From contig JBDREQ010000023.1 in assembly GCA_043819555.1 (NCBI GenBank), forward strand, positions 1 to 13,508: a stretch of 13,508 bases of DNA, in the 5' to 3' direction. A program made the position numbers and the translations under genes. Source of the stretch: Candidatus Zixiibacteriota bacterium. GTDB lineage: Bacteria; Zixibacteria; MSB-5A5; GN15; JAAZOE01. The notes under the pieces were generated by a model that was not told the origin of the DNA, did no database searches, and saw only the letters and a list, made by a program, of their open reading frames with translations. This document shows positions 1,957 through 13,508 of the stretch, piece after piece. The first letter of the stretch is position 1. Each line of letters starts with the position of its first letter.

Positions 1957-1995
1957 AAATTGTTGTGATTGTAATATGTTACCACACAACAATTT
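1957..1995. other. Inverted repeat/hairpin next to att-like core 1
   Basis: AAATTGTTGTG (1957-1967) pairs with CACAACAATTT (1985-1995), with inner GTAA/TTAC pairing. It may be a terminator or a protein-binding dyad. Confidence 0.4.
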
Positions 1996-2172
1996 ATATT
2001 AATGCGGAGGAGGTAGGATACGAATTAGGCCATTTCGTATAACTTTTTGCAGCCCCTTTAATTACGCTTAATTCGCTGAGTCAACATTGGTTAAGTTACT
2101 TCAAGTTGCGTCAAGTTGGAGCAAGTTAGTGGGTAGTTGGATATAGTTCGCGGTTAGAAAATGGTTAGAAAA
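1972..2172 (-). repeat. att-like junction copy 1 (tRNA 3'-end fragment, dyads, phased repeats, paired arm-type repeats)
   Basis: Core GCGGAGGAGGTAGGATACGAA at 2004. CCATTT at +26 and TAACTT at +36. AGTT at 2094, 2104, 2114, 2124, 2135 and 2145. GGTTAGAAAA at 2152 and 2163. Co-linear with copies 2 and 3. Confidence 0.8.
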
Positions 2173-2194
2173 TCATTGACCGCAGCCTTTTCAT

Positions 2195-2221
2195 AAGTGG
2201 CCAAATTGTGGCCACTTTTTT
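2195..2221 (+). terminator. Hairpin with T-tract (possible intrinsic terminator; alternatively an 11-bp-period direct repeat)
   Basis: AAGTGGCCA-AATTG-TGGCCACTT followed by T run, about 160 bp beyond the hypE stop. Confidence 0.35.
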
Positions 2222-2375
2222 ACAGAAGGAACATCTAATACCTGGTGATGCTGTACAAGGCTATCGTCGATTTGATCTGTTTTGAAGGTTTTTGAATTTT
2301 TGTGGACAAAAATAGGGCACTGGAATTATTCAATTTCAAAAAGTATAATTGAATCTTGATCAATTTCTGCCATAA

Positions 2376-3434
2376 TTAGCATATCCTGGGCAATTGCTCT
2401 CCGGCGGGAGCAGTTATTATTCGCTCGGTTCCCAAGTCGGTTTTAAGAGTCACCAGGCTTTTTTCATTATCGGCTACCTGACCAATAATCGATGCATTTT
2501 TCCACCCCAATTTTGTTTTTAATATATTTAACGTATTATCTGCTTCAGGTGTAGGGACAAATAAGACAAACGTCCCTTCATTGGCGACCTGCATCGGATC
2601 ATACCCAAGGATTTCGCAGGCATTATTTACTTCAGGTGATATTGGAATTCCATTTTCTTCTAATGCAAAATGTAATTGAGAAGAGGCGGCCAACTCTGTC
2701 AGTGCCGATGACAACCCGCCTCGAGTCAGGTCGCGAAGACAGTTGATATTAACACCGTTATTAATCAGTGTCATAACCGTATCAGCCAAAGGCGCGCAGT
2801 CACTTTCTATTAAAGATTCAAATTGAAATCCTTCCCGAACTGACATAACTGCAATACCATGACAGCCAATGTCACGATTAATAATAATGGCATCTCCGGG
2901 GCTAATTGTTTCAGGTGAAATATTCAACTGATGGTTAATTATTCCCACGCCTGAAGTATTTATATAAACGCCATCACCCTTACCATGTTCAACGACCTTG
3001 GTATCTCCCGTCACTATTTGAACTCCAACCTTATCAGCCGCTTTTTTCATCGATTGAATTATCTGAGTCAGTGTCTCAATTGAAAATCCTTCTTCGATGA
3101 TTAATCCAACACTTATAAATAGAGGTTTGGCACCACACATTGCCAGATCGTTAGCGGTACCAATAACCGAAAGCGAACCAATATCACCGCCCGGGAAAAA
3201 AAGCGGATTAATTACAAATGAATCTGTTGTAAAGGCATAACGACCGTTTTGACTGTCATATATTGCACCATCATGTCTCTTCCTTAGCTCAATGGTATCA
3301 AGAGTACTAACAAATACGTCTTGAATCAATTTATTCATCTGACTACCCCCGCCGCCGTGCGCCATAGTTATTTTGCTTTGTGTCTGAACGGGAATCGGGC
3401 ATTGGATGTAATAACCACGGTCATTATTTTTCAT
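2376..3434 (-). CDS. hypE: Hydrogenase maturation carbamoyl dehydratase HypE
   Basis: Motifs MAHGGGG, FTTDSFVINPLFFPGGDIG, TGDTKVV, RDLTRGG, ANEG and C-terminal PRIC. Start moved to ATG 3434, which has AGGAG RBS (3440-3444) and overlaps the hypD stop. Confidence 0.96.
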   Translation of the reverse strand: MKNNDRGYYIQCPIPVQTQSKITMAHGGGGSQMNKLIQDVFVSTLDTIELRKRHDGAIYDSQNGRYAFTTDSFVINPLFFPGGDIGSLSVIGTANDLAMCGAKPLFISVGLIIEEGFSIETLTQIIQSMKKAADKVGVQIVTGDTKVVEHGKGDGVYINTSGVGIINHQLNISPETISPGDAIIINRDIGCHGIAVMSVREGFQFESLIESDCAPLADTVMTLINNGVNINCLRDLTRGGLSSALTELAASSQLHFALEENGIPISPEVNNACEILGYDPMQVANEGTFVLFVPTPEADNTLNILKTKLGWKNASIIGQVADNEKSLVTLKTDLGTERIITAPAGEQLPRIC

Positions 3435-4518
3435 AATTGCTCCTGTATTTATAATAAGCAGAGCAGACACCTTCCGATGACACCATCATGGGCCCCAGGG
3501 GATGTTCCGGTCGACACTCACTCGTGAATTCAGGACATTGATCCGGTTTAGCCCGACCGCTCAGGATGTCGGCCATAATACATTTGCTTTTGCTATAAGG
3601 TTTTTCGTGATAGTTATTTAGATAATGCTCAGCATCGTATTTTGTGTACTTATTCTTTAAAGTATAACCGCTTTCTTTAATAATTCCCAAGCCTCGCCAT
3701 TCACGATCGGTCACATCGAATACTTCGTTTATTATCATTTGAGCATGTCTATTACCGTCTTCGTTGACTGCCCGTCCGTATTGATTTTTGAGACCGGCGT
3801 GTCCTGCCTCAAGTTGTTCAACCGCCATATAAATACCCTGTACCAGATCAGCCGGTTCAAAACCCGTAGCGATGATCGGTATTTGGTATAGAGAAACAAG
3901 CTTTTTATAATCTTCTAACCCGGTAATAGTACAGACATGCCCGGGAGCAAGAAGGGCATCGATACGGCAATCAGGACTGCCAAGTAAGGAATTGACAGCT
4001 GGCGGAATTCTCACCATTCCGCATAATATTGAATAATTATTTATTTCAAGTCTGTCAGCCACTAAGACAGAATATCCGTTACCCGGTGCAGTCGTCTCGA
4101 ATCCTATGGCAAAAAATACGATATTTTTCTCTGGAGTTTTTTGCGCCAGTGCTACTGCATCAAGCGGAGAATAAACGATTCGGATATCGGCACCCTCTGC
4201 CCGGGCCGACAGCAAATCACCATGTGATCCCGGGACGCGCATCATATCACCAAATGTACATAATATTGTATCCGTATTAAGAGACAACGATGTGGCCTGA
4301 TCAATCAACTTCATCGGAGTGACGCAAACCGGACAACCGGGGCCATGCAACAAATCTATATTTTGAGGTACCAATCGATCAATTCCGAATTTGAAAATAG
4401 CATGAGTCTGTCCCCCGCATACTTCCATGATATTCCAATTGTCGGTTGTTATTTGCCTTACAATTGATAAATATTTATTAATCAGTTCCGGTGTACGATA
4501 TTCGCTTAAGTATCTCAT
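3424..4518 (-). CDS. hypD: Hydrogenase maturation protein HypD
   Basis: Motifs MEVCGGQTH, GPGCPVC, GFETT, PGHV and C-terminal C-x14-C-x6-C-x16-C cluster ligands. Confidence 0.96.
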   Translation of the reverse strand: MRYLSEYRTPELINKYLSIVRQITTDNWNIMEVCGGQTHAIFKFGIDRLVPQNIDLLHGPGCPVCVTPMKLIDQATSLSLNTDTILCTFGDMMRVPGSHGDLLSARAEGADIRIVYSPLDAVALAQKTPEKNIVFFAIGFETTAPGNGYSVLVADRLEINNYSILCGMVRIPPAVNSLLGSPDCRIDALLAPGHVCTITGLEDYKKLVSLYQIPIIATGFEPADLVQGIYMAVEQLEAGHAGLKNQYGRAVNEDGNRHAQMIINEVFDVTDREWRGLGIIKESGYTLKNKYTKYDAEHYLNNYHEKPYSKSKCIMADILSGRAKPDQCPEFTSECRPEHPLGPMMVSSEGVCSAYYKYRSNYEK

Positions 4519-4520
4519 AC

Positions 4521-4757
4521 CTATAGTTCTTGTTCAATAATTTTATCTAATTCTTCTAGAGTCTGCTGAGCGACTCTCTCATCAATTATACTAATGGCAA
4601 AACCGGTGTGTACTAGAATATAATCATCGACCTCAACATCGGGTACAAAAGCAAGATTTACAGTTTTGATGATACCGCCGAAATCCGCTTTTCCGGATGG
4701 CATCAGGTTATCTTTCTTCTCAATCCATATTACTTTTCCGGGTACAGCAAGACACAT
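4521..4757 (-). CDS. hypC: Hydrogenase assembly chaperone HypC
   Basis: N-terminal MCLAVPG and DYILVHTGFAI. 78 aa, located between hypF and hypD. Confidence 0.96.
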   Translation of the reverse strand: MCLAVPGKVIWIEKKDNLMPSGKADFGGIIKTVNLAFVPDVEVDDYILVHTGFAISIIDERVAQQTLEELDKIIEQEL

Positions 4758-4758
4758 A

Positions 4759-7047
4759 TTAATCCTTTTTGCTTAGATGAACACCAGCCATTATTTGTCC
4801 GGCACTGATTCCGCCGTCATTGGTTGGTATCCGTTGATGCCGAAAAGGTTTGAAATTTTCCTGCCGAAGACGAATAATCGCTCTTTCGGTTAAATATTTG
4901 TTCTGAAAACAGCCGCCCGTAAGAGCAACCTGCTTAATCCCTGTCAGTTTTGCCACGGTTAAAATTATTTCTGCAAGCGTATTGTGGAATTTCCCTGAAA
5001 TCGTTTCAGGCTTTATGTTATCGCGTAAATCATTAAGGACACTCTTTATTATGGGATGCCAATTGACAATATATGTATTTTTAATCGTATCGACTTCAAA
5101 ATCATATGATTCCTCTGTCAACAATGAACCTATCACCGATTCAAGAGCAATTGCGGCTTCAGCTTCATAATCAGATTTTTGACAAAGATCGAGTAGTGAG
5201 GAAACGGCATCGAATAGGCGCCCCATACTTGAAGTCAGATGGCAGTTTATTTTTTGCCTTAACATTTTTCGGATAATTGGGAGCTCGTCTTTGTTAAATG
5301 CTGCGATAGCATGACAATCACTCAAAGAAAATGCGCCGTTACCATATATATCATGAAGTATTGCTATTGCAGAGCGGCGAGGTTCACGGGCAGGCATATC
5401 TCCGCCCGGAAGCATAAATTGTTTTAAATGTCCCATTCGTTTTATTTGTGTATCATCAACGGCCAAAAACTCTCCACCCCAGATAGAGTTATCCTCTCCC
5501 AAACCCGTTCCGTCCCAGACAATCCCAAGGACAGGCGGTTTTAAATTATTATCTAGCATACAGGAAAACAGATGAGCATAATGATGCTGGACGGACATTG
5601 ATGGTCTATTAAGCGGATTTGCATAACTGCTGGACAGATAGTCGGGATGTAGATCAGTAATAATCAAATCCGGATGCAGCCTATAAAGTGAACTTAAAGA
5701 GTTAATCGTATTATGGTATAGGTCAAACGTTTGTTTTGCACGCAAATCACCAATATGCTGACTGACAATACATTTGTTTCCAGATTTTACAGCTATTGTA
5801 TTTTTCAGATCAGTCCCGGTTGCAAGAATGCTTTCACCTTCGTGCTCGACTTCGAATTCTGCCGGTGCATATCCCCGAGCGCTCCTGATGACCGATGGTT
5901 TACCGGCAATAAGTCTCACCACCGAATCATCGACCGGCCGAACAATCGGACGGTTATGAACTAGAAAGTAGTCAGCAATAGATCCCAGACTGTTAACCGC
6001 TGCACGTTCGTCGATGATTATTGATTCATTTGAAATATTACCGCTTGTGCATACGGCAGGAAAAACTATCTCTCGCATTAATAGATGATGCAGGGGAGTA
6101 TAGGGCAGCATAATACCAATTGTGGAGTTATTTGGAGCGACGTTTGGAGCAATTGATGAATTACTTTTCCTTTTTCTTATAATCACTATCGGGGATTGCA
6201 TGCTTCGCAGGAGTTCTATTTCATCATCTGTAGGTTTGCAATATAATTTCAGTTCCTGAACATTTCTAACCATTAAGGCCAACGGTTTTCTTTCCCGGTG
6301 TTTCCTTTTCCGAAGTAGTTGGACAGCATCCTCATCAAGAGCATTCACCAAAAGCTGAAAGCCACCCAGCCCTTTCAAGGCCAAAATCTTCCCGGCCTTG
6401 AGAAATTCGGCACTTCTTTCAATAATATCTTTATTTGAGCCCAGGAATTTGCCGGAATTATCCCATAATTCAAGGTTGGGTCCGCAATTCGGACAGGCGA
6501 TCGGCTGGGCATGGAATCGTCTATCAGCAGGATTCTCGTATTCGGCACGGCATTGCTCACACATTTGAAAAGTCTTCATGGCAGTGTTAGCACGATCATA
6601 TGGAAGTGATTCGATAATGCTGTATCGCGGTCCGCAACTGGTGCAGTTGGTGAATGGATAACGAAACCTTCTATTTTTTGAGTCAAGTATATCGTCCAGG
6701 CAATCCTGGCAGATGGCGATATCGGGGATTATTGAAATCGATCCGTTAACTGATTCAATACTGTCCGTAATTGTAAATGAATTGTAGGTCCCGGATGCAG
6801 ATTCGTTTATGGTCAAATTATTAATTTGAGAAAGCGGAGGTCTGTTTTGTTGCATTGAATTGACAAATCCGTCAATTAAATCTTCAGAACCGGTAATCTC
6901 GATCACAACACCGTTGGCAGTATTAGCCACATATCCATTTAACTGCGACTGACGGGCTAGGTTATAGATAAATGGACGAAAACCGACTCCCTGAACTTTG
7001 CCGCTAATTTCGATTTTGACGTTTTTTATATTATCAGTTATCTGCAT
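4759..7047 (-). CDS. hypF: Carbamoyltransferase HypF
   Basis: Acylphosphatase domain (GKVQGVGFRP), two zinc fingers (CQDC...CTSC; CEQC...CPNC), KGLGGF, QHHYAH, DGTG, SSMGRLFD, PTNDGGIS. Confidence 0.97.
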   Translation of the reverse strand: MQITDNIKNVKIEISGKVQGVGFRPFIYNLARQSQLNGYVANTANGVVIEITGSEDLIDGFVNSMQQNRPPLSQINNLTINESASGTYNSFTITDSIESVNGSISIIPDIAICQDCLDDILDSKNRRFRYPFTNCTSCGPRYSIIESLPYDRANTAMKTFQMCEQCRAEYENPADRRFHAQPIACPNCGPNLELWDNSGKFLGSNKDIIERSAEFLKAGKILALKGLGGFQLLVNALDEDAVQLLRKRKHRERKPLALMVRNVQELKLYCKPTDDEIELLRSMQSPIVIIRKRKSNSSIAPNVAPNNSTIGIMLPYTPLHHLLMREIVFPAVCTSGNISNESIIIDERAAVNSLGSIADYFLVHNRPIVRPVDDSVVRLIAGKPSVIRSARGYAPAEFEVEHEGESILATGTDLKNTIAVKSGNKCIVSQHIGDLRAKQTFDLYHNTINSLSSLYRLHPDLIITDLHPDYLSSSYANPLNRPSMSVQHHYAHLFSCMLDNNLKPPVLGIVWDGTGLGEDNSIWGGEFLAVDDTQIKRMGHLKQFMLPGGDMPAREPRRSAIAILHDIYGNGAFSLSDCHAIAAFNKDELPIIRKMLRQKINCHLTSSMGRLFDAVSSLLDLCQKSDYEAEAAIALESVIGSLLTEESYDFEVDTIKNTYIVNWHPIIKSVLNDLRDNIKPETISGKFHNTLAEIILTVAKLTGIKQVALTGGCFQNKYLTERAIIRLRQENFKPFRHQRIPTNDGGISAGQIMAGVHLSKKD

Positions 7048-7065
7048 TTCAAAACCGCTTGATCC

Positions 7066-7323
7066 TTAAATCTCGACACTTTCCAGGATAATATCCTGAG
7101 CATGAGGATCATTAATATCTTCTGAGTTTATAACCTCCAGTTCGGCATTTTCTGCGTTTGTTCCTTTAGCCGCTTCATAAAAATGTTCGCTAAAATGATC
7201 GGATGAAATATGCGACAATGCTCCCAGTCTGATGGTTACCTTTTTTATTGAGGCGCCGCCTTTTTCTTCTGAGATTGACTTCAGTTTTTTGAAAATATCT
7301 TTTAGCAGTGACAGTTCATGCAT
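7066..7323 (-). CDS. hypA: Short HypA-like nickel metallochaperone lacking the zinc-binding domain
   Basis: N-terminal MHE Ni-binding motif, V-x-I-x-L-G-x-L-S, and C-terminal IILESVEI strand. 85 aa with no cysteines. Confidence 0.85.
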   Translation of the reverse strand: MHELSLLKDIFKKLKSISEEKGGASIKKVTIRLGALSHISSDHFSEHFYEAAKGTNAENAELEVINSEDINDPHAQDIILESVEI

Positions 7324-7801
7324 CTTTATTAACCTTTAGAGTTTCGATGATTTCCATTATTAGTTTCTTTGCAGACGTTTCAACCGTTTTGCTCAGTTTA
7401 TTACCCGGTTTAAATTTTTCACCCTCGATACCATAGATAGTCAATTTTTGAGGTAGCTTTCCAAGCGCTTTGCCAAGTTTTATCGTTTCTTGGATATTTA
7501 ATGAATGAGTAGAAAATGCTGTGAACAAATCTTCAGATATATTCTCTGACAGACCGTCAAACTTATATAAATAGCCGGGCGATTGATTGGGACTGACAGC
7601 ATCAATAAGTATTACATGATCTTTGCCATCCCAATAATCCAGCAGGGATGTACCATCACTTATACCATTGATCACTGAAACACCTCTTATTACATTCTGC
7701 TCAATACAGCGGGATACATACAGGCCGATTCCGTCATCACTGCGGTAATCATTCCCTAATCCGATGATTAAGACACCGGATTCTTCCTTGATTTCCGACA
7801 T
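7316..7801 (-). CDS. Hydrogenase maturation endopeptidase (HycI/HybD family)
   Basis: IIGLGNDYRSDDGIG, ILIDAV, STH. Directly downstream of the large subunit gene. Confidence 0.93.
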   Translation of the reverse strand: MSEIKEESGVLIIGLGNDYRSDDGIGLYVSRCIEQNVIRGVSVINGISDGTSLLDYWDGKDHVILIDAVSPNQSPGYLYKFDGLSENISEDLFTAFSTHSLNIQETIKLGKALGKLPQKLTIYGIEGEKFKPGNKLSKTVETSAKKLIMEIIETLKVNKDA

Positions 7802-7804
7802 AAT

Positions 7805-9094
7805 CTAATCTCTACTGATTTTAAGCTTAAGGAAATGACAGGAGCATGAGATGCATGGGTCGTAATTTCGAATAGTTTGTTCGCACAGCCAGGTAATTTT
7901 CTCATCAGAAAGATGAAGATTATTATCAACAGATTGCCGAAGATCATTTTCGATTGATTTTTGATTCTGGGACGTTGGTGGTATTATTCTCGCCTCTTGA
8001 ATAATTCCGTCTTTATCTATTTTATACCGATGATACAATATTCCCCGCGGCGCTTCCGTGCATCCTTGTCCGACACCTTCAATGGGAACACATTCAATAC
8101 AAGATTTTTCCGGTGGTTCATATCTTTTAATTAGTTTTATCGCTTCCTCACATACAAAAATCAGTTCGATAGCCCGGACGATTATACTCTTGTAAGGATT
8201 TAAACAGGATTTATCTAATCCAGCCTTTTTGGCAGCCTCTCTTGCAGATGAGGGCAGCATATCGAAGTTATTATGAAATCTGGCCATCGGTCCAACCAGA
8301 TAATCGCCTCTTTCTTTAATCCGTGCATGAAGCGAGGTTGAATGTTTGACCTGATACTCTTCAAAAAAATCAAGGAACTTGTCGATTGGAATATCTATAC
8401 CTTTGTTGGAAACAATATCCCCCTCACAGATAGGATATTCATCAGAATGTCTTAATGATACAAATTCATAATCGCGCTCCAAATTGGGAAATTCAAATCC
8501 TGAAACAATTTCCACTGTTTCATGCGAGAATTCCAGGGCCCATTTGAGAGGAGCGAGAAAACTCCCAAGGTCCTTTCTTGTAGGGACCTTGTAAAATCCT
8601 CCAACTCTTACGTTAATAGGATGTATTTCCCTTCCGCCCAGCTTTATCATCAGATCATTACCAATTTTCTTTAACTTCAGAGCTCTTTTAACAATATCAG
8701 GATGATCTTTGGCCATCTTGATAGCATCATCATACCCGAGAAAATCGGGCGCGTGTAGCATAAAAATATGCAGAGCGTGTGATTCAATCCATTCTCCGCA
8801 ATACAGTAATCTTCTTAAATCTCTAAGCGGACCATCAACCTTTACACCGCAAATCTGTTCCATTGCATGCGAGGAACTCATCTGGTAGGCGACCGGGCAA
8901 ATACCGCAAATCCGCGCCGTTATATCAGGGGCCTCGGTGAATTTTCTATTTTTTAAGAATCCTTCAAAAAAGCGGGGAGGTTCAAAAACATTAAATTTTG
9001 ATTCAACTACCTTTCCGTTTTTAAGGCTTATAAATAATCCGCCTTCACCTTCCACTCGGGCCAGATAATCAACTTTGATAGTCTTATTTTTCAT
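7805..9094 (-). CDS. hydA: Group 3b [NiFe]-hydrogenase large (alpha) subunit
   Basis: ARVEGEG, L1 motif RICGICP, EAPRG, L2 motif DPCISCSCH plus a cleavable tail (FLKLKISRD). Likely start ATG 9094 (MKNKTIKVD), overlapping the hydD stop. Confidence 0.95.
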
Positions 9095-9866
9095 AAGCTT
9101 CGCTTTCTTTCCTGAACGGTTCGGAAAAAGCATTAAATCCTCTAAAATATCTGACTATATCTTCTCTGGACATCTCTATCTTTTCCAGTTGCGCCGCCAG
9201 TGATGATGTATTTGGTGCGTCCATCGGTCCGAAACAGCTGTAACATCCCCGATTATAAAATGGGCATATTGCTCCGCATCCGGCCAGCGTTACCGGCCCA
9301 AGGCAGGGCGTACCATGGACTACCATAACACATATGTTACCTTTACGCTTACATTCTAAGCAGAGACTGTAACCGGGAATATTAGGTTTACGCCCGTTTA
9401 GCAGCGCACTTATCACTTCAATGAGATGATATTTATTTATCGGACATCCTTGTAGTGCAAAGTCGACAGAAACATGGTCAATGATAGGAGTTGATTTATT
9501 AAGGGTTTCAATATATTCCGGATTTGGATAGACGGTTCTGATGTAGTCATTGACATCGCCAAAATTCCTGATAGCCTGGATGCCGCCTGATGTAGCACAG
9601 GCTCCAATTGTGATAAGCAATTTTGATTGACGGCGAATTTTATGAATTCGCTCGGCATCATGAGAAGTCGTAATCGATCCTTCAACCAGCGAAATATCGT
9701 AGGGTCCTTTTATATACACACGGGATGCTTCCGGGAAATTTGCTATTTGAACTGCATCAGCTACTGTTAGAAGTTCATCTTCGCAATCAAGTAATGATAG
9801 TTGACAGCCATCACATGATGCAAATTTCCATACCGCGAGTTTGGGTTTTTTATTGATTTTTGACAT
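9084..9866 (-). CDS. hydD: Group 3b [NiFe]-hydrogenase small (delta) subunit
   Basis: [24 protein letters not shown], and distal CLECK...[15 protein letters not shown]...CYSC motifs. Confidence 0.94.
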
Positions 9867-9868
9867 TT

Positions 9869-10729
9869 CTACATTTCACGCTTCAAGAAAACATCTTTCA
9901 TATCGGTATATCTAAAAACCGGACCATCTTTACAAACAAAATATGGGCCTAACTGGCAGCGCCCACATAACCCAATACCGCATTTCATATTTCGTTCCAT
10001 TGAAATAAAAATATTTTCGTAGGCGACACCTTTTTTTTGAAGTTCAAGAATTGTAAAACGCATCATTATTTCAGGTCCGCATATCATAACCGTGCAATGT
10101 AATGGATCAAACTGGGCTCGAGGAATTAACCGGGTAACTACACCAACATTCCCCCGCCAATTATCAGGGGCTCGATCCACTGTAACCAAAATCTCCATAT
10201 CAAAACGTGACCGCCATTTTTCCAATTCCTTTTTATATAAAATGTCATCGGGTGTTCGGGCGCCATATAATAAGGCGACCTTACCATAATCTCCCCGGTT
10301 CCGCAATAAATGATAAATAACCGGGCGAAGCGGCGCAATACCAATACCACCCGATATAATTAATACATCCTGCGTTTTACTTTTTTCAACCGGCCAGGAC
10401 GTACCATACGGTCCGCGGACGCCAACAATATCGCCTTTTTTTAGATTACATATAACATTAGTAACTGAGCCTACTTTCCGGACAGTATGAATGATCTTAT
10501 TCGTTTCGTCGCGATCGCCACTTATCGATATCGGAACTTCGCCGGCGCCGAAAATATATAGCATATTAAACTGCCCCGGAAGAAAGGCAAAAACCTGCCG
10601 ATTATCGGATTCCATTTCCAGTGTATAGGTATCACCAGTTTCTTTGATGATCCTTTTAATATTATAAGGGTAAGGGATCATCGGGCTTTCTGTTTGAGCA
10701 TCATTATTTTTATTTATTGTTTTGACCAT
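9869..10729 (-). CDS. hydG: Group 3b hydrogenase gamma subunit (FAD/NAD(P)-binding, 2Fe-2S)
   Basis: [45 protein letters not shown]...CKDGPVF. Confidence 0.93.
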
Positions 10730-11174
10730 AAATATCCATCAGTTGCATTCTTGTTGCTTCCAGCCGTTCGGCAATAATAAGGTTAAAGCGTTTCATAAGC
10801 TCATAACCAAGATCATGATCCTTTTCACATTTGCCCCGCAAACACTTGCCATCAAGAGCGATTGCCCGAGTAACTTCTATTGCGCGGGCATCAAAATGCC
10901 ATTTATAAGGCGGAACCAGCCATGACCAGCCGAGAATCTCACCGGCATCGCGAGTATTTATTAAAATTGCTCCCTGGTGAGGGACAAAGGTTTCAATTAC
11001 TATTTTGCCGCTTCTGATAAAATAAAATGAATCGGCATCTTCGCCTTCCCGAAATATATATTCGCCCACCTTGAAAACAACGTTGGAAGCACAACCGGTA
11101 AGCAATTTAATTTGACCGGTATCCATTCCGTGAATGAAAGGATGTTCCTCTAAAATACGTTCCAGGTTTTCCAT
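10710..11174 (-). CDS. Stand-alone cyclic-nucleotide-binding (CAP_ED) domain protein
   Basis: F-x-x-GEYIFREGEDADSFYFIRSGKI...GEILG beta-roll signature. 154 aa with no C-terminal HTH. GAGGT RBS upstream; overlaps the hydG start by 20 bp. Confidence 0.88.
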   Translation of the reverse strand: MENLERILEEHPFIHGMDTGQIKLLTGCASNVVFKVGEYIFREGEDADSFYFIRSGKIVIETFVPHQGAILINTRDAGEILGWSWLVPPYKWHFDARAIEVTRAIALDGKCLRGKCEKDHDLGYELMKRFNLIIAERLEATRMQLMDIYGQNNK

Positions 11175-11198
11175 CTTGATACCTCAAGATTAAATAAA

Positions 11199-12311
11199 TT
11201 AAACATTTTTACAAATACGTGTCGCTTCTTCGGTAATGTCTATTCCAACAGGACACCATGTAATACAGCGACCACAACCAACACATCCTGATAAATCAAA
11301 TTGATTGTTCCAATAGGAGAGTTTATGCATTAACCACTGCCTATACCGGGATTTGCCCGATTGGCGAATACAGCCCCCATGTATATTTGAAAACTCCCGA
11401 TTAAAACAAGAGTCCCACTTGCGCAGTCGCACAGCCGTTTTGCCCTGAATATCAGTTTCGTCTTCAAAGTTAATGCAAAAACATGTCGGACATACCATAG
11501 TACAATTACCGCAAGTAAGACACCTTCCGGCAATCTCATCCCAATCGGGATTATCGAATTGCCCGTTGAGAGAATTCCCAAAAAATCCCAGCGACAATTT
11601 TCTCGACATTTTCGATTTTGCTTTTTCCAATGTCGATTTTTCATCGGATAGTTGTTTGTCTGAGGCGGTGGAAAGCGATAATGTCTGAAGCAATTTATGT
11701 CCCTTCTCCGATCCGACGGTAACTACGAAATATGAATCATTATCTATTTCAGTAAGAGCAAGATCAAATCCTTCAGAAACGACCGGACCAGTATTCATCG
11801 ATTCACAGAAACAGGTATTTCCAGGGCTGCTACAATTTACGGCAATAACAATCATTTTTTGGCGAAATTGAAGATAGTCATGGTCAACATAAGCTCCCTG
11901 AATCAGAATCTTGTCCAGTATTTTGATCGCCGCCAGCTCACAGGCCCGTAATCCGATAAAGGCTAATTCCGGAATATCATTTTCCTGTGTGTCGATCCTG
12001 TAATTATTATTTTTCTTTAAAAATTTGAAAATTGTTTTTACGGATGGATATATAAACTGTTTTACGGAGTTTTGACCAACCGTATAGCCGGAAAAGATAG
12101 TGCCATTGTTGGTTTTTTTTATTCTGTAATACCCATTGTTTTGATCATCGTAAATGCCAATCGGAAAATCTTCAAAATGATCTATAAATTCATAGACAAT
12201 GGCTTTATCTCTGACTGTAGGCCCAACTACTTCGTATTTATTCTTTTGAAGAGTTTTAAGAAGAAGTTTCATACTACCAAATTCAAGAAAGAATTTTGGA
12301 TAGCCTTCCAT
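11199..12311 (-). CDS. hydB: Group 3b hydrogenase beta subunit (4Fe-4S, AsrA-like)
   Basis: GLRACEL, CFCESM, CLTCGNCTMVCPTCFC, WDSC, CVGCGRCITWCPVGID. Confidence 0.93.
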   Translation of the reverse strand: MEGYPKFFLEFGSMKLLLKTLQKNKYEVVGPTVRDKAIVYEFIDHFEDFPIGIYDDQNNGYYRIKKTNNGTIFSGYTVGQNSVKQFIYPSVKTIFKFLKKNNNYRIDTQENDIPELAFIGLRACELAAIKILDKILIQGAYVDHDYLQFRQKMIVIAVNCSSPGNTCFCESMNTGPVVSEGFDLALTEIDNDSYFVVTVGSEKGHKLLQTLSLSTASDKQLSDEKSTLEKAKSKMSRKLSLGFFGNSLNGQFDNPDWDEIAGRCLTCGNCTMVCPTCFCINFEDETDIQGKTAVRLRKWDSCFNREFSNIHGGCIRQSGKSRYRQWLMHKLSYWNNQFDLSGCVGCGRCITWCPVGIDITEEATRICKNV

Positions 12312-12321
12312 AATCCCTACT

Positions 12322-12339
12322 TTGTGATAAATTTCACAA
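12322..12339. promoter_or_regulatory. Rex-like (or CRP-like) operator
   Basis: TTGTGA-TAAATT-TCACAA: one mismatch to the Rex consensus TTGTGAA-N4-TTCACAA, and an exact CRP core TGTGA-N6-TCACA. It lies between the promoter and the hydB RBS. Confidence 0.7.
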
Positions 12340-12353
12340 TTTTTCTTAATGAA

Positions 12354-12382
12354 AAGATATAATTCCTTCGTTATTTTGTCAA
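12354..12382 (-). promoter_or_regulatory. Sigma70-type promoter of the hydrogenase operon
   Basis: Minus strand TTGACA (12382-12377), 17-bp spacer, TATCTT (12359-12354). Confidence 0.65.
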
Positions 12383-12465
12383 TAAGTATATTGATTTATC
12401 TGAAAGTAATAATAAACACTCGCCACTGTTTTTCGAGAGTCAAGCACTCATTCGCGTTTTGTATC

Positions 12466-12706
12466 GGTAGAAATCGAGTAGAAAACCTTCTAACCCACAA
12501 TGCTAAAATGTTATACAACAATAGGTTATAAGTTCAAAGCGGGGGAGGTAGGATTCGACGAACGCCATTTTAGCTAACTTCTTAATACACAGCTAAATAC
12601 GCATAATTTGATGCCTACTATTACCTTAACAAACTTGTAGTTCCGTGTACTTCGATGTAGTTGCGTGTATTTCCAGGTAGTTCCCGGTTAGAAAATGGTT
12701 AGAAAA
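12466..12706 (-). repeat. att-like junction copy 2
   Basis: Left arm GGTAGAAATCGAGTAGAAAACCTTCTAACCCAC. Core GCGGGGGAGGTAGGATTCGA at 12539. Five 10-mers at 12636-12685 (TGTAGTTCCG TGTACTTCGA TGTAGTTGCG TGTATTTCCA GGTAGTTCCC). GGTTAGAAAA at 12686 and 12697. Confidence 0.85.
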
Positions 12707-13366
12707 TTACCCTCGAATTCCAAAAAATATTTATTGAACGTCATTAAAAACTTTTCGCCTTTTCAAGCCATAATATAAGAGGAACTTTAAATTTGGCAAA
12801 TGGCTTGAGACGATATTATGACGCACTTGCCAATTGTAAGGGTTTTCTTTTTTCTTAATAACTGCATTTAAATAGCTACATGGTACCATGCTGTCCATGA
12901 ATGTAAATGTGAGTTTGAGTTCAGAAAAAACCCGGGGCATCCCGCAAAAACACAACGGCCTAAAATTGGCGTGCCTTTGTTAATGATCTTTGAAATTATT
13001 TAAGGCAAGCGGCTTGATTAAATATTGGCGATATTCTTTCCTATTTTAAAAACAACTCACATAAGCTCGGGAAATCGAACTCCCTATTCGCATTGTGGAA
13101 CAGCAACTTATACCCTATTGTGGTCAAATCGCGACCTTTTTTGGGAAAATATAATGCTGTATTTGAGTGCTTGTGGACACCGCCAATGCTTAGTATCTAG
13201 CGCCCAATTTGTTTCCAAATCAGGCGCCAATGGATTTCCGGTGTTGATCCCCCATATGACATTCGGTAATCTGTTCAATTGCTGTGCATTCCACCTTAAC
13301 TCTCCGAGTAAAAAACTTCGAACCCACGGTGTAAAATAATGCCACGCAACATCTTACGTGAAATAT
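12539..13366. mobile_element. Putative 828-bp minimal non-autonomous integrative unit
   Basis: Interval between cores 2 and 3, with the same two end types as the hydrogenase unit. No recognisable gene in the interior. Confidence 0.5.
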
Positions 13367-13508
13367 GCGGAGGAGGTAGGATTCTACACGATCCATTTTG
13401 GTTAACTTTATGACATGTAGTTATTTACGCGCAATTTAATGCCCGTGCGCATGTTAACTTACTTGTAGTTCCGTGTAGTTCGATGTAGTTGCGTGTAGTT
13501 CCAGGTAG
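13305..13508 (-). repeat. att-like junction copy 3 (truncated by the window edge)
   Basis: Left arm CGAGTAAAAAACTTCGAACCCAC. Core GCGGAGGAGGTAGGATTC at 13367. 10-mers from 13464 (TGTAGTTCCG TGTAGTTCGA TGTAGTTGCG TGTAGTTCCA GGTAG), at the same +97 offset as in copy 2. Confidence 0.85.

Follow-up and report, generated by a model that had tools for sequence, protein, structure and literature searches.

How gene blocks that carry no integrase come to be stacked behind copies of a single tRNA end is the question raised by a stretch of 13,508 nucleotides from a Candidatus Zixiibacteriota bacterium (GCA_043819555.1, contig JBDREQ010000023.1), referred to below as the window. The window is the entire contig C23 of the genome under study (G000; 3.35 Mb in 79 contigs), and the comparison set comprised 285 genomes of the same class; G001 belongs to the same genus, and G010 and G073 to different families (f1 and f3). 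It is probable that the window represents part of a stack of non-autonomous tRNA-Ser cassettes, which are likely worked in trans by a lambda-like tyrosine integrase. The cores, arms and cargo of the cassettes, the integrase-free state of the units and a tRNA-Ser integrase family that shares the long arm are directly observed.

Three 18-nt cores, all on the same strand, start at positions 2004, 12539 and 13367; at no more than one mismatch, the search returned three matches on the plus strand, none on the minus strand and none after the window had been shuffled 200 times by mononucleotide. The core corresponds to the 3' end of the tRNA-Ser(TGA) of G000, which was located intact by ARAGORN at C79:55-142 and overlapping the start of C1 (the two contigs overlap by 141 nt). 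Read on the minus strand, core 1 (2004..2021) copies this end from half of the T-loop to the discriminator, core 2 (12539..12556) has one mismatch, and core 3 occupies 13367..13384. The motifs CCATTT, TAACTT and TACGC follow at +26, +36 and +59 in all three modules, and pairs of GGTTAGAAAA at +148/+159 and +147/+158, the pair of the third module being lost at the contig end. This module is completed by C36, which overlaps the right end of the window by 76 nt; the tRNA-bearing contig has no physical link to the window in the assembly. Matches to the core are more numerous in G000 (10) than in any other of the 285 genomes (at most 4). A tRNA, an Rfam family and an integrase were all searched for in the window, and none was found.

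Four units of G000 are fully delimited by such modules, and all four keep both arms, in the manner of attL and attR: a 10.5-kb hydrogenase unit and a 0.8-kb unit in the window, a 4.0-kb CsgG/OmpA unit (C36) and a 2.2-kb KefB-like unit (C55). Integration and transfer genes were absent from the units in Pfam scans of the window and of the cassette open reading frames (ORFs) and in tblastn searches. In a hand-picked census by hidden Markov models (HMM) and tblastn, 14 of 16 delimited units were free of any integrase trace. The hydrogenase unit (2022..12538, minus strand) is a complete integrase-free cassette encoding the maturation proteins HypE-like, HypD, HypC, HypF, a short HypA-like protein and the HycI protease (2376..7801, minus strand), followed by a sulfhydrogenase-like set of NiFe hydrogenase beta, a cNMP-binding protein, gamma, delta and alpha (7805..12311, minus strand), for which the top NCBIfam matches score lower than the curated cut-offs. 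We take this hydrogenase to be of the group 3b type. At 85 aa, the product of the HypA-like ORF (7066-7323) is short and covers just positions 1-66 of a Pfam model with 112, and no HypB gene was found among the ORFs of the cassette. The unit has a GC content at third codon positions of 0.36, versus 0.44 in core contigs. This operon family is common in the class (150 of 285 genomes); the idea that it travels as a cassette elsewhere was rejected, since the 29 best hydB loci outside the window all lack Ser-type arms within 1.5 kb. The complete 0.8-kb unit (12557..13366, minus strand) is near-empty, with no Pfam match in the four ORFs tested, and is probably an emptied cassette.

The non-coding module has a bipartite anatomy, and its arms were named P (long) and P' (short) after lambda. 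In profile scans of G000, ten long-arm matches represent nine modules (the match at C36:1-102 continues the last module of the window), and eight short arms were found, one of them immediately behind the intact tRNA. Seven of the nine modules are full junctions of short arm, core and long arm; the short arm is missing at core 1 and at one C55 module. The long arm of the hydrogenase unit (2022..2172, minus strand) carries CCATTT, TAACTT, TACGC, phased AAGTT and a terminal GTTAGAAAA pair, and falls into a group of 77-88% identity common to G001, G010, G073 and G186; those of the 0.8-kb unit and of the next unit lie at 12557..12706 and 13385..13508 (both on the minus strand), the latter cut at the contig end and continued at G000:C36:1-102. 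The spacing of the paired GTTAGAAAA boxes in full junctions changes in steps of about 10 bp only, which is also the period of the AAGTT repeats, and IHF-like boxes take preferred positions in both arms. All fetched loci together give 42 distinct modules: 35 of them have a core-to-box distance of 146-149, and the remaining seven one of 128, 138-139 or 178. The box pair is present in 78 of the 285 genomes, with none for the reversed control. Pairwise, the long arms of G000 are 64-88% alike and no two are identical, so the stack did not arise by recent duplication. In 41 distinct junctions, GAATCC is where identity with the tRNA starts, and the crossover is accordingly placed in the T-loop.

A conserved short arm of 71-73 nt flanks core 2 (12539) and core 3 (13367) on the left and is absent at core 1 (2004); it bounds the hydrogenase unit at 12465..12538 and the 0.8-kb unit at 13296..13366 (both on the minus strand). 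Its length is 71 or 73 in all nine pattern-caught copies, versus 92-93 in 36 of 36 copies of the corresponding integrase-linked arm, a difference of about two helical turns. With 14 copies in six genomes of three families it forms a conserved type of its own, and no integrase follows it at ten relative or re-fetched loci or in the scanned cargo of G000. The short arm of the 0.8-kb unit includes an exact 14-nt copy of the 5' side of the tRNA T-arm, and other short arms likewise copy this side; the integrase-linked arm repeats part of the acceptor strand instead. These copies are possibly extra core-type sites. A promoter and terminator scan of 12300-13508 gave nothing better than chance.

Evidence that integrase-free units move comes from the relatives. 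At this tRNA, G001 holds a lone 2.2-kb potassium-channel unit and has no hydB match. A TolC+AcrB unit is common to G010 and G073 from end to end, with 81% nucleotide identity over 5.5 kb, and their AcrB proteins are 92% identical versus 76% for RecA (fourfold sites, 0.57 versus 0.35). A second contig of G073 lacks exactly this unit, and past the junction the two contigs agree at 127 of 127 nt. The next gene in G073 shows 61% identity to the KefB-like cassette gene of G000, in the same position and orientation, indicating entry of the newer unit beside the tRNA; the distal flank was considered as native chromosome, which was rejected as it resembles an older degenerate unit. The long arm of the hydrogenase unit is 88% like that of G010 and at most 73% like others in G000, and both ends of this unit are nearer to the G010/G073 unit than to their own neighbours, while the cargo is different. 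Judged from these alignments, the two units would have a similar shell with swapped cargo.

The original prediction, made from the window alone, is partly borne out: three same-strand modules with fixed motif spacing, a core derived from tRNA-Ser, att-like arms, integrase-free units, varied cargo at one tRNA and entry of new units next to the tRNA (as in the filled and empty alleles of G073) were all recovered, although the conserved short arm had been overlooked. The contrary patterns that it had named, namely the lack of a matching genomic tRNA end, modules in random orientation, or invariant syntenic cargo, were not seen in G000.

An integrase that might act on these sites was found outside the array. 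Five PF00589 matches occur in G000, and the one on C53 is preceded by the box pair. Its family was detected in 55 of the 285 genomes at E<=1e-60, a count that takes in a more distant sister group. Among 42 integrase loci, 30 have a tRNA-Ser directly upstream, with all four anticodons represented, and two a tRNA-Gln; the rest comprise one tRNA-Ala (a distant match), three with a core and no intact tRNA call, three without a core and three that are cut off. In G122 the integrase stands at tRNA-Ser(TGA) with an identical core and is 62% identical to the G001 ortholog of the C53 protein. Integrase-bearing elements span about 5-50 kb, and their far ends match the long-arm profile. Four of them, when scanned, carried a hydrogenase cluster, restriction-modification and Sir2-like genes, HerA/TraG-like ATPases, ArdC or an HTH_17 protein. 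Hydrogenases are recurrent as cargo, since an Mvh/Hdr-like cluster is borne by an integrase-carrying family member in G079 (C14:25000-43700). The model of the complete G001 protein (predicted local distance difference test score, pLDDT, 88) has an N-terminal domain of three strands and a helix and aligns over its full length with lambda Int (E 3e-11), and the catalytic-type residues R233, H323 and R326 are invariant across 29 sequences. In G133 (C1:1468-4067), a tRNA-Ser(GCT) beside the integrase is seemingly split by some 2.5 kb of other DNA, and a copy that looks intact follows at a distance.

In both G000 and G001 the integrase gene is detached from the tRNA: the arm is kept, and the core has given way, at the same junction, to the right-hand portion of a dispersed repeat about 60 nt long (C53:56080-56112 and some 20 other places in G000). 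The two orthologs are 92% identical at the protein level and 91% at the nucleotide level, with 62 synonymous and 27 non-synonymous codon differences, and their upstream neighbours are unlike. Since the neighbours differ and core DNA is only 83-85% identical, the C53 integrase looks to have moved recently rather than to have been fixed anciently. No integrase lies beside this tRNA in G000, G001, G010, G073 or G186. Other recombinases of G000 were weighed as well. The C6 integrase shares the box pair and stands at a tRNA-Met; it gave no matches at E<=1e-30 in 13 family genomes, so it was not followed as the family of interest and is kept as a second helper candidate only. Two Xer-sized recombinases on C7 and an IS-like recombinase on C18, the latter beside an ORF presumably encoding a zinc-binding, transposase-like protein, were dropped as unlinked to the modules.

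Several traces connect the tRNA-Ser units with a parallel array at the tmRNA end of G000, which has a distinct box pair (C71:31395-31905, C60:1857-6562, C10:298-11668) and beside which no tyrosine integrase was found. Of the 18 Ser-unit ends in G000, 4 have remnants of the tmRNA type nearby, where the background rate is about 0.02 per 400 nt. One, a remnant box pair at 2194..2213 (minus strand), about 20 nt outside the long arm, has an equivalent position in G010 and G073; another, inside the 0.8-kb unit at 13069..13143 (minus strand), consists of a degenerate tmRNA-type arm and a truncated tmRNA core. The hydB of G172, one of the two closest relatives of the window gene (70% nucleotide identity), is located after a tmRNA-type site. 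Cargo may thus pass between the tRNA-Ser and tmRNA systems. A sister integrase at tRNA-Ser(TGA) in G159 (C38:104735-106034) has box pairs like the tmRNA-type arm and may explain hybrid junctions, such as a Ser core followed by a tmRNA-type arm in G001. A third array, with the same GTTAGAAAA pair, is found at the initiator tRNA-Met (G000 C6:4911-13495 and C20:140551-145090; G001 C44). In its C6 element the 3' end of the integrase gene overlaps the arm and the tRNA and contains the box pair, and an HTH_17 gene and a TraD/HerA-like ATPase are also present.

The following mechanism might account for these features. The GTTAGAAAA pairs would serve as arm-type sites for the N-terminal domain of the integrase, while bending or directionality proteins would bind the phased AAGTT repeats and the IHF-like boxes. 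Excision would yield a circle whose junction consists of long arm, core and short arm. Insertion of the circle, into the T-loop of the intact tRNA or into a junction already present, would restore the tRNA and displace older units outward. The helper could be a visiting autonomous element or the detached C53 copy. Cargo would be swapped within the shared pair of ends and partly captured from the parallel tmRNA-targeted system.

Several observations weigh against action of a C53-family integrase in trans on one stack. The nine modules of G000 are spread over six contigs and a single linked run holds only four of them, and in G106, a complete genome, three modules are separated by hundreds of kilobases. 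The recA control for transfer is one gene, and the filled and empty alleles of G073 differ upstream at four sites and one gap, so they may represent two strains rather than ongoing excision. No circle junction or recombination event was observed; the only public read run found contained 6% of the words, in fragments and with no joints, and is uninformative on circles. The contig ends within the C53 copy, beside which no excisionase was seen, the sole HTH_17 match in G000 adjoining the other integrase, at tRNA-Met on C6. G010 and G073 carry cassettes yet have no family match at E<=1e-60, and the tyrosine recombinases of the G010 assembly are two, both Xer-sized. Because the integrase-linked arm and the cassette short arm differ in both length and inner sequence, it is an assumption that a C53-family integrase recognises the latter. 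The integrase-linked arm and the integrase do occur together in 43 of 43 cases, but this is circular because the loci were fetched via the integrase. As regards a phage vehicle, neither a relative of the integrase nor the arm pattern was found in viral contigs, which is weak as evidence of absence. The proposal of an integrase acting in trans is supported by the existence of a matching family that could do so; control of the array by one resident integrase was not established, in view of the detachment of C53 from the tRNA, its lack of synteny with G001 and the two Xer-sized recombinases of G010.

The same data may be read in other ways. Units resembling integrative and conjugative elements (ICEs) or integrative and mobilisable elements (IMEs) might simply have lost their own integrase by deletion and be fixed or mobile only in cis, as in the decay model of PMC5704250; degraded integrase copies in the arrays of relatives (G079 C14, G159 and G001 Ser(CGA)) and a 45-aa integrase remnant in one G002 unit agree with it, and cis-mobilisation could likewise carry a unit between genomes. 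We consider plain decay unlikely, given the 14 trace-free units of the census, a short arm conserved as a separate type rather than as random truncation of the integrase-linked arm, and a single unit precisely present or absent in G073. Still less probable is a domesticated platform, in which the C53 integrase, having lost its tRNA core, became a permanent host gene serving the array as IntI does. The replacement of the core at one junction in both G000 and G001, the excess of synonymous over non-synonymous differences and the high core count of G000 would suit such a gene; its differing neighbours and recent move, the single unit at this tRNA in G001 despite an integrase gene there, and the rarity of detached copies (just 3 of 42 loci) would not. 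That the module is a dispersed repeat, like a miniature inverted-repeat transposable element, or a structured RNA with a chance tRNA fragment, would fit copies scattered over several contigs of G000 and far apart in G106. It is made highly improbable by the uniform orientation within each contig that has at least two copies (C23, C36 and C55), the start of the module exactly at the intact tRNA, top pairs without terminal inverted repeats, folding no better than shuffles (single-stranded z from -1.6 to +2.2 on both strands of six modules, 12 strands in all), no Rfam match, and tRNA-anchored single units in G001, G010, G073 and G186.

A bolder version of the trans-acting reading, which we hold to be doubtful, is a purpose-built integrase-free shuttle, in which lambda-type arms form a reusable shell that crosses families with partly tmRNA-derived cargo, and a grounded host integrase loads it at tRNA-Ser. 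If true, this shuttle would be an equivalent of the integron made of wholly different parts, with a hydrogenase, an efflux pump and a potassium transporter as cargo.

Side results at the left end of the window concern the limits of the island. Core 1 was rejected as its true end, positions 1-2003 having no match in G001 and the distal core genes of G001 mapping to C11 of G000. Positions 1-140 represent the end of a repeated element, likely an insertion sequence, that is identical at the ends of about ten other contigs and truncates an outer-membrane efflux gene at 48-1046.

For an uncultured phylum, the stack would be a way to gain whole metabolic modules in small, precise units, as with the complete NiFe hydrogenase and its maturation genes here. 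The accretion literature leaves it open if islands without an integrase are all wrecks or if they can form a separate mobile class, and the stack bears on that point. With two arm types, a core, a candidate integrase and a filled and an empty allele defined, the system can be tested in a laboratory strain; the integrase family, whose targets include all four tRNA-Ser isoacceptors and tRNA-Gln, may also serve as a tool. A literature search, with most subscription journals and supplements outside its coverage, returned no account of this Zixibacteria system.

Among known systems, integrons and clusters of attC sites lacking integron-integrases (CALINs) resemble the array in their recombinase-free cassettes, variable cargo and newest unit nearest the anchor (on a definition drawn in part from PMC4119200). 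The array differs in that no attC-like hairpin (by single-stranded folding, with no attC covariance model), IntI or adjacent platform integrase was found, the candidate integrases scoring 46-65 bits against TIGR02249 (cut-off 265) and having a predicted N-terminal domain of arm-binding-like type, and in its tRNA anchor and multi-gene units with their own upstream regions; "integron-like", as the original prediction put it, holds as an analogy but not as membership. As in lambda-type elements, the tRNA 3' end is duplicated at the far boundary; the predicted fold and the co-occurrence of motifs would suit a three-domain tyrosine integrase with arm-type sites, whose gene lies outside the units. 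The ssrA islands of Dehalococcoides, as described in PMC3146451 (McMurdie 2011), are arranged in tandem behind the tmRNA, 15 of them without an integration module, carry respiratory cargo and share a mid-T-loop crossover and a conserved motif beside the repeat. They depend on the serine recombinase DsiB at tmRNA, in contrast to the lambda-like tyrosine integrase, tRNA-Ser and arms of about 150 and 70 nt seen here; PF07508 has three matches in G000, all on contigs without Ser modules. Prochlorococcus tycheposons and Alteromonas islands (bioRxiv 10.1101/2020.12.28.424599; PMC4119200) show, in the portions available, tRNA-anchored polar growth, partial tRNA copies and transient integrase visitors, and Alteromonas fGI1 includes a hydrogenase cassette. 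Tycheposons have their own integrase and often replication genes, unlike the units described here, and these portions describe no conserved integrase-free arm type.

The closest likeness is to cis-mobilisable elements (CIMEs), which PMC5704250 presents as decayed ICEs or IMEs mobilised in cis in streptococcal tandem accretion: attL and attR are kept, integration and transfer genes are absent, units with chimeric junctions are stacked at the 3' end of a target gene, and the integrase is of the tyrosine type. Compared with that account, the units here are small and clean and possess a short arm specific to them; at the site they exceed autonomous elements by at least 9 to 0, and one of them is common to two families; as to a decay origin, most hand-picked units are remnant-free with a distinct arm type, while some relatives keep remnants. 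The arrangement is best explained as a variant of CIME-type accretion, notable for its dedicated integrase-free arm, cross-family transfer, filled and empty pair and cargo swapping.

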